A DNA stretch of 55,580 nt, filler included, from Sphacelaria rigidula (lineage: Eukaryota), in NCBI GenBank assembly GCA_964200075.2. It is 6 parts of 6 records of this genome, joined end to end, with 100 filler letters (N's around TTAATTAATTAA, not from the genome) between each part and the next. Parts side by side here need not be neighbours in the genome. Positions count along the whole stretch, not along the records: positions 37,124 to 46,302 come from CAXNAA020009111.1; 5 more parts are not named here. The stretch is one strand, 5' to 3'. The translations under genes and the position numbers were made by a program. This document shows, in pieces, positions 38,192 through 38,227 of the stretch; the stretch's first letter is position 1; each line of letters begins with the position of its first letter. Under the pieces are notes generated by a model. It had not been told where the DNA came from. It worked only from the letters and a program-made list of their open reading frames with translations, and ran no database searches.

Positions 38192-38227
38192 GGTGTTTAC
38201 TCAACACCACCCACCTCATAAAAGAGG
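38192..38227 (+). terminator. Histone 3' stem-loop, ACCCA and HDE-like purine element
   Basis: GGTGTT-TACTC-AACACC (38192-38208), ACCCA (38209-38213), AAAAGAGG (38220-38227); starts 85 nt after the stop codon. Confidence 0.75.

Follow-up and report, generated by a model that had tools for sequence, protein, structure and literature searches.

In the course of our analysis of a 55,580-nt stretch of DNA from the brown alga Sphacelaria rigidula (assembly GCA_964200075.2), referred to below as the window, we found that an intronless gene for histone H4 is followed by a hairpin that is almost certainly a genuine histone 3' signal. Probably it represents a functional 3'-end signal of histone mRNA of the kind that a stem-loop binding protein (SLBP) reads, belonging to a sub-class with a loop of five nucleotides that agrees nearly letter for letter with elements of chlorophytes. 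The element is specific, it is conserved over two supergroups and two histone classes, and it is present in a second copy within the same genome. It also seems likely, if with slightly less confidence, that the H4 mRNA ends at this hairpin and carries no poly(A) tail. Note that the window is a concatenation of six pieces of approximately 9.18 kb each, so that two features separated by a joint are not neighbors in the genome. All positions below count along the whole window, and the features discussed are collected in Table 1.

The H4 open reading frame is intact and encodes a canonical H4, and an identical protein is present in a public protein collection. No other histone gene was detected in the window. 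The hairpin behind it, in the same-strand 3' flank of this core histone gene, starts 86 nt past the stop codon, compared to 26-126 nt in the loci that we retrieved for comparison, and so falls within the range of roughly 25-130 nt from the stop. All six pairs of its stem are of the Watson-Crick type, the first two being G-C and the uppermost U-A, and U38191 and A38209 are able to form a seventh pair. The loop, UACUC, has a uridine at its first and at its next-to-last position. The stem is followed directly by ACCCA (38209-38213), the type of 3' flank known as ACCCA or ACCA, and a CCTCAT spacer at 38214-38219 separates this flank from a purine tract. All the letters and coordinates that had been listed in an original prediction made from the sequence were confirmed.

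A perfect 6-bp stem that starts with GG, has a loop of four or five nucleotides and is followed by ACCCA occurs once on the two strands of the window, with a mean of 0.01 and a maximum of 1 in 200 first-order Markov simulations. Without the ACCCA tail, eight such hairpins were seen versus 3.8 expected. As the hairpins alone are near chance level, the signal is carried by the tail and by the position of the element. The fold of the whole 154-nt untranslated region (UTR) is ordinary, with a z score of -0.44. When 301 nt were compared with all 4227 Rfam families, family RF00032 (Histone3) matched 38187-38233 on the plus strand with 18 bits (E = 0.021), whereby the loop was aligned with a one-base insertion after U1. 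This is the sole match to the family in the whole window at E<=10, and it is located directly behind the sole histone gene, on the same strand.

For comparison we retrieved 99 H4 loci, 80 from prokaryote assemblies, evidently on contaminating eukaryote contigs, and 19 from contigs labelled as viral. They contain 41 distinct H4 3' flanks, most of which are of the animal type GGCYCU-UUUN-AGRGCC-AC. The sequence GGTGTT, five nucleotides, AACACC and ACC was found in two of the 41, designated L064 and L083. The L064 contig, with a length of 1722 bp, holds a divergent H3-H4 pair in which the H3 gene is followed by an identical element (L102), so that on this green-alga contig the sharing of the element across histone genes of one genome is seen for H3 and H4. 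In sequence, the H4 protein of L064 does not differ from that of Chlorella variabilis and Picochlorum, and the closest named matches of a coproporphyrinogen oxidase fragment from this contig include Parachlorella (77%) and Chlamydomonas (77%). Note that a Coffea record reached a better E-value for this fragment, at 64% identity. Because of the identity of the H4 protein and the chlorophyte matches of the oxidase, L064 most likely originates from a Chlorella-like green alga. The H4 of L083 has unusual residues in common with that of L064, and a convergent, divergent H3 variant on the L083 contig shows no such element. In an AT-rich unknown eukaryote (L081), the same GGUGUU/AACACC stem is combined with a canonical UUUC loop.

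From the elements of L064 H4, L102 H3 and L083 H4 we defined a five-base-loop 'algal' class, the core of which is found in the window element as well, again behind a core histone gene. Across the core CU-GGUGUU-UAYUN-AACACC-ACC, the one element of the window and the three of green algae all agree at 21 of the 24 positions. The 'CU' directly before the stem and the possible seventh pair, formed by a U before and an A after the stem, are common to all five elements with a 5-nt loop. The signal had originally been described as metazoan-style, a label that was not borne out, as the stem sequence, the 5-nt loop and the possible seventh U-A pair are those of the chlorophyte type.

A covariance model, R1, was then built from the three green-alga elements, with the window excluded. 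As evidenced by a search of both strands of the 55.6-kb window with filters off, this green-alga-only model ranks the H4 element first, with 27.7 bits and E = 8.3e-5, in support of the earlier claim of a genuine histone 3' stem-loop. The corresponding RF00032 scores are 16.4 bits for the green-alga H3 element, 18 bits for the window and 29.7 bits for L081, at a threshold of 34, and the Rfam threshold misses the whole non-animal set retrieved here. The background of R1 was taken from loci L163-L209, where nothing scored above 13.3 bits, and from off-site matches; loci L107-L156 had been selected by pattern, and their own sites score high by construction. The pattern CTGGTGTT-N5-AACACCAC occurs at 56 places on viral contigs, 55 of them unrelated to histones, and with a TAYTN loop it is found there at the L083 contig only, beside histone genes. 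The exact 22-mer had no match on viral contigs, and the element was present at none of the 52 H3 gene ends among 61 viral-contig H3 loci. A search of metagenomes with the exact 22-mer returned two matches, both within bacterial Maf-like coding sequence, which were discarded as chance.

The position of the window element among histone stem-loops in general was assessed in a comparison of 23 distinct elements. These were derived from 24 rows, from which L009 (a mis-registered hairpin), L025 (a near-duplicate of L012) and L040 (a 3-nt loop) were left out and to which the window element and the L102 H3 element were added. Pair counts were made by script; a MAFFT alignment of the 23 stem-loops had a gap in the stem. 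The first stem pair is G-C in 22 elements and G-U in one, the second is G-C in all 23, and the sixth is U-A in 22 and U-G in one. Pairs 3-5 are variable, a change on one side being accompanied by one on the other (C-G/U-A; C-G/U-A/G-C; C-G/U-A/A-U). A uridine is found at the first and the next-to-last loop position in all 23 elements, including the one of the window, and the first three bases of the 3' flank are ACC in 12, ACA in nine and AAC in two. By this comparison, the window element retains the positions that the literature treats as diagnostic for SLBP.

The retrieved loci allowed for some observations beyond this comparison. Eukaryotic H4 is encoded at 84 places in assemblies with a bacterial or archaeal label (L003-L082), in many cases within tandem histone-cluster repeats with animal-type stem-loops; the bins, assigned to Saprospiraceae, Nitrospirales, Poribacteria and others, appear to be contaminated with host DNA. 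Tandem H4 genes with a period of ~500 bp (L009:1421-1465 and 1918-1962) lie on a contig from a bin labelled Litorimonas, where the element AGCUUU-UUUA-AAAGCU-ACCA is followed by GAAGAAAGAGG. Its first stem pair is A-U, not G-C, and it reaches 26.6 bits with RF00032. The end of a 37.9-kb 'viral' contig (L106, IMGVR_UViG_3300017964_003525) carries an intron-containing H4 gene, which has the stem-loop of the algal type, together with a divergent H3 variant in convergent orientation, and looks like nuclear DNA of a green alga, not of a virus.

The second copy of the element in the window is located on another piece, at 18654-18695, and is matched by R1 at 18650-18682 with 17.3 bits (E = 0.041). 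An ungapped comparison with 38188-38229 yields 29 identities in 42 positions, the best value in the window, which was reached by none of 300 window-sized Markov simulations; none of these exceeded 27. The identity is unevenly distributed, with 4/4 in the 5' flank CCCT, 14/17 in the hairpin, 3/5 in the 3' flank, 1/6 in the spacer and 7/9 in the purine tract (AAAAGAGGA in the H4 element and AAAAGGGAA in the copy), which has an offset of 12 in both cases. In the 60 nt upstream and in the 60 nt downstream the identity is 17/60 each. Both changes in the 3' arm are from A to G and convert U-A into U-G, such that the hairpin is preserved. Two conserved islands at a fixed spacing in unrelated surroundings are the pattern that would be expected of a selected stem-loop with a downstream element. 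In the 95 nt upstream of the copy no histone-like C-terminus was readable.

The purine tract behind the H4 hairpin reads AAAAGAGG at 38220-38227 and is extended by the following A at 38228. [quoted passage not shown] Among 19 histone stem-loops with four-base loops on other eukaryote contigs, nine have a purine tract that starts at 11-20 nt. The tract had been said to sit closer to the stem than in mammals; its offset is within the range of these contigs and is thus not particularly short. As for the claim of a purine element as such, the occurrence of AAAAGRGRA at an identical offset in the second copy speaks in its favor, although this amounts to n = 2 and the gene belonging to the second copy is cut off. 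First, limited support thus exists for a role of the tract as a U7-type downstream element, an assignment that may be correct but for which the balance is at best even.

A number of observations weigh against the reading of the hairpin as a functional SLBP-type 3'-end signal and of the tract as its probable second half. The window element, at 18 bits, stays below the RF00032 gathering score of 34, its loop has 5 nt where the rule is four bases, with U at positions 1 and 3, and its 5' flank is rich in pyrimidines and not A-rich like that of animals. The in-genome sample consists of one brown-alga histone gene, and together with the second copy the element is represented twice. The copy is weak on R1 alone, as off-target matches in 243 kb of other loci reach 18.1 bits, and it lies 95 nt past a joint of the window, where the gene upstream is cut off. 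The H4 gene itself is solitary in its 9.2-kb piece, among repeats, and could be an orphon with low expression. A run of at least eight purines at offsets of 8-20 has a window background of 6.3%. Furthermore, the tract is not common to the three green-alga elements; these have UGGAA in common, 14-17 nt past the stem, a candidate for a lineage-specific downstream element as judged by sequence. Tracts that differ between lineages would be predicted if the partner RNA were lineage-specific, and other explanations fit too. No U7 candidate and no match to RF00066 were found in the window, 55 kb being too little to expect one, and none of 47 anti-HDE words is followed by an Sm-like site in the 55.6 kb, a sample far too small to be informative. 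Finally, pairing between the tract and the pyrimidine spacer could explain the conservation of the tract without U7.

Such pairing is predicted as a small second hairpin that overlaps the purine tract. Minimum free energy and centroid structures agree on it, with a z score of -2.69 for a 50-nt stretch, and both copies in the window fold as tandem hairpins in which the tract forms the 3' strand, with z scores of -2.69 and -2.93 that were equalled by three of 200 shuffles for each copy. However, the 5' strands of the second hairpin are in a different register in the two copies, and complementarity of a U-rich spacer and an A-rich tract is likewise found in several animal-type loci. For these two reasons we read the second hairpin, itself a predicted structure, as a probable side effect or a masking structure and not as an alternative to an HDE. 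The opposite view, that the 3' end is made by SLBP without any U7-like RNA and that the tract is conserved for a second hairpin with a structural or termination function, or for the binding of a protein, is the most durable of the competing explanations, although we consider it rather unlikely. The tandem folds of both brown-alga copies are in its favor, as is the ability of the green-alga UGG to pair with CCA of the ACCA flank. It is also in line with a 2008 survey, the consulted part of which holds U7 to be confined to animals (PMC5054213), and with the accessible text of a 2026 preprint (10.64898/2026.10.14.759114), which, outside animals, names a predicted U7-like RNA for one early fungus only. 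Against it stands the fact that the purine tract is in register between the copies while the paired 5' strands are not, and animals use U7 even though their loci show the same complementarity of spacer and HDE. In addition, the U7-specific proteins LSM10 and LSM11 are reported for Ectocarpus (10.64898/2026.10.14.759114).

It is less likely still that the hairpin is real but the mRNA is mainly cleaved and polyadenylated further downstream, so that the stem-loop would serve stability, translation or a minor alternative 3' end. Such roles have been suggested for certain protists, plants and early fungi, and the preprint (10.64898/2026.10.14.759114) describes lineages with coexisting stem-loop and poly(A) features and stramenopile stem-loops that are less canonical. 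The distance of 86 nt from the stop codon moreover exceeds the 25-60 nt given there for animals. Yet the near-identical green-alga class belongs to a group in which replication-type histone mRNAs are reported not to be polyadenylated (PMC8226298, PMC13525598), and an element for stability alone would need neither the conserved ACC(C)A flank nor a purine tract at the distance of an HDE.

That the H4 gene is a dispersed orphon or a decaying copy, and its hairpin a relic without present function at this site, is improbable. The isolation of the gene and its repeat-rich surroundings would fit this scenario, and histone genes in Ectocarpus are mostly clustered (PMC7784034), but eight of 43 are located outside clusters according to the same source. 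Among sequencing runs of one organism, possible RNA runs contained 0.01-0.08 of the sampled words and three runs of unstated type 0.42-0.58; shares as small as the former speak neither for nor against the scenario. Both the reading frame and the protein are those of an intact gene, and the hairpin has remained perfect at all six pairs, whereas the unrelated flanks of the second copy attest to rapid divergence of unconstrained sequence. A chance combination of hairpin, ACCCA and purine tract is already contradicted and its probability negligible, since the near-random frequency of tail-less hairpins (8 versus 3.8) and the unremarkable fold of the UTR (z -0.44) are outweighed by an expectation of 0.01 per window with the tail, the top rank with the independent model R1 (E 8.3e-5), the 21 of 24 core positions shared with green-alga H3 and H4 elements and a second copy unmatched in 300 simulations.

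For the functional SLBP-type signal that we favor, the following sequence of events can be proposed. The nascent H4 transcript would fold into a hairpin of 6-7 bp about 86 nt past the stop codon, and a stem-loop binding protein would read the basal G-C pairs, the U-A top pair and the uridines of the loop. An endonuclease of the CPSF73 type would then cut a few nucleotides 3' of the stem, within ACCCA or immediately behind it (~38213), to yield an mRNA that ends in the hairpin and lacks a poly(A) tail. By analogy with animals, as outlined in the introduction of the preprint (10.64898/2026.10.14.759114), we infer a mature 3' end near 38211-38214. AAAAGRGRA, 12 nt past the stem, would be the likely second half of a two-part signal, serving as a landing site for a U7-like small nuclear ribonucleoprotein (snRNP), perhaps after first being masked in the small second hairpin. 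In its fullest form, this would mean that brown algae possess a complete two-part machinery of the U7 type, with a 5-nt-loop stem-loop and a matching SLBP on the one hand, and AAAAGRGRA with a U7-like small nuclear RNA (5' UYCYCUUUU) on an LSM10/LSM11 ring on the other. We regard this complete version as speculative and doubtful. If it were true, and given that the hairpin class is found in chlorophytes too, the two-part signal would be older than the divergence of stramenopiles, green plants and animals, and U7 would not have originated with animals.

Replication-type histone transcripts of Chlamydomonas are described as non-polyadenylated and ending in stem-loops (PMC8226298, PMC13525598, PMC5054213), and for Chlamydomonas and Volvox the non-polyadenylated histone mRNAs are attributed to Fabry et al. 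1995, as cited in PMC13525598 and PMC5054213. Note that our comparison set consists of Chlorella-type contigs and that the hairpin class of Chlamydomonas and Volvox may differ. According to the available text of the 2026 preprint (10.64898/2026.10.14.759114), SLBP and stem-loops are widespread in protists, stramenopile histone stem-loops lie further downstream than those of animals and are less conserved, and Ectocarpus has homologs of LSM10 and LSM11. The detection used there requires a 6-bp stem and a 4-nt loop, and of 44,646 Rfam entries it is stated to miss 36 non-canonical ones, 5-nt loops included. As this pipeline demands a 4-nt loop, the window element would go unscored. In text searches, the consulted portions of two papers on brown-alga histones (PMC7784034, PMC12459048) made no mention of stem-loops or polyadenylation, and the latter states that cell-cycle expression is not currently measurable in brown algae. 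A search of literature text did not find the motif strings, and no paper combining non-polyadenylated histone mRNA with Phaeophyceae was found in the literature search. The 5-nt-loop class may already have been described in Fabry et al. 1995 or in Lopez & Samuelsson 2008.

The near match between the hairpin of a brown alga and that of Chlorella-like green algae suggests that the animal-style ending of histone mRNA is old and widespread. The near identity of the 24-nt core between a stramenopile and chlorophytes implies a very strong and old constraint, presumably with a co-evolving SLBP. The standard detectors, Rfam with its threshold and the newest survey with its demand for a 4-nt loop, miss a real stem-loop in at least one brown alga and in Chlorella-type algae, and maps of the loss or decay of the pathway are thus perhaps in part artefacts. 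The second copy is a first indication that a downstream element is conserved outside animals and green algae as well, and it makes the search for a U7-like RNA concrete, as the 5' end to be expected can be stated. The element could further be used as a sequence marker of replication-coupled histone genes, for example in asking whether H2A.E might be the missing replication-coupled H2A.

The H4 gene starts 671 nt into the fifth piece of the window, and its true neighbors are confined to these 671 nt upstream and to 8.2 kb downstream. A CCAAT motif is located upstream of the gene at 37607-37611, and a heptanucleotide microsatellite, (GCAATGA)n, at 37467-37578 lies approximately 220 nt before the start codon. 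Downstream, at a distance of 360 nt, an imperfect 85-nt inverted repeat (38467-38551 / 38611-38695) with 78% complementarity and a 59-nt spacer gave weak, sub-threshold matches to a plant miRNA family on both strands and may be a small inverted-repeat element. Elsewhere in the window, a degenerate, frame-shifted retroelement of the Ty3/gypsy type extends over 12243-18390, with RVT_1, RNase H, integrase zinc-binding and rve domains, and a weaker RVT_1 fragment is found at 4423-5208. For the gypsy-type reverse-transcriptase frame at 14291-15367, 30 matches were listed; the four among them that named an organism are all Sphacelaria rigidula proteins with 48-78% identity, and one further named match is a bacterial metagenome bin. 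As far as this test goes, it bears out the original reading of the DNA as that of a brown alga. A palindromic hairpin at 54321-54420 matches mir-8489 on both strands with 46-48 bits, at a gathering score of 99. The open frame of 569 aa at 51334-53040, with runs of poly-Q, poly-G and poly-A and no Pfam match, is low-complexity GC-rich DNA, which has long frames on the opposite strand too. A scan of the window for bacterial-type promoters and terminators was empty, a result that is irrelevant to a eukaryote.

Table 1. Features of the H4 locus and its second copy, counterparts on green-alga contigs, and spacers and gaps of the window
Feature	Position	Strand	Details
Intronless histone H4 gene, 103 aa plus TAA	37795..38106	+	ATG 37795, stop TAA 38104-38106
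Proximal 3' UTR, 85 nt, stop codon to hairpin	38107..38191	+	ends with C-rich 5' flank ...ACCCCU
Histone 3' stem-loop	38192..38208	+	GGUGUU 38192-97, loop UACUC 38198-202, AACACC 38203-08
ACCCA 3' flank	38209..38213	+	predicted cleavage and trimming zone
Possible second small hairpin	38214..38227	+	CCUC 38214-17, loop AUAAAA, GAGG 38224-27; overlaps purine tract
Purine-rich element AAAAGAGGA, candidate HDE	38220..38228	+	offset 12 after stem
Second copy	18654..18695	+	CCCU, GGUGUU 18658-63, UACUU, GACGCC 18669-74, AUCCU, UUGCCG, AAAAGGGAA 18686-94
L064 H4 element			GGTGTT-TATTA-AACACC-ACCA, 126 nt past stop codon
L083 H4 element			GGTGTT-TATTC-AACACC-ACCA, 34 nt past stop codon
Green-alga element with UGGAA	L102:405-461	-	
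Green-alga element with UGGAA	L102:1675-1722	+	
Green-alga element with UGGAA	L106:1995-2044	+	
Spacers N44-TTAATTAATTAA-N44	9182-9281, 18463-18562, 27744-27843, 37024-37123, 46303-46402		
Additional 10-N gaps	33577-33586, 49360-49369		

The best characterized system to which the window element can be compared is the metazoan signal (RF00032 with the HDE), which is served by SLBP, a U7 snRNP with LSM10 and LSM11, FLASH and CPSF73. Both are located behind an intronless core histone gene, and in both a 6-bp stem has G-C as its first two pairs and U-A as its uppermost one, the first and the next-to-last base of the loop are uridines and the flank reads ACCCA. The purine tract 12 nt past the stem likewise has its parallel among the 19 four-base-loop elements, most of them of the animal GGCYCU type, nine of which have a tract that starts at 11-20 nt. 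The window element differs in its loop of 5 nt instead of 4 and in pairs 3-5, which are U-A, G-C and U-A as opposed to C-G, Y-R and Y-R. It further differs in the absence of an A-rich 5' flank, in the possible seventh U-A pair, in its distance of 86 nt from the stop codon and in its score of 18 bits against a gathering score of 34. The stramenopile stem-loops described in the accessible part of the preprint (10.64898/2026.10.14.759114) are poorly conserved, unlike the window element, which is almost identical to the green-alga class. With the chlorophyte stem-loops (L064/L102 and L083), it has the 5-nt length of the loop and the potential 7-bp stem in common, and these are found behind H3 and H4. 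Differences exist at loop positions 3 and 5, which are C and C in the window but U and A/C in the chlorophytes, in the flank, ACCCA versus ACCA, and in the tract, AAAAGRGRA in the window copies versus UGGAA(A/C)G. As a stramenopile, Sphacelaria rigidula is also a member of a different supergroup.

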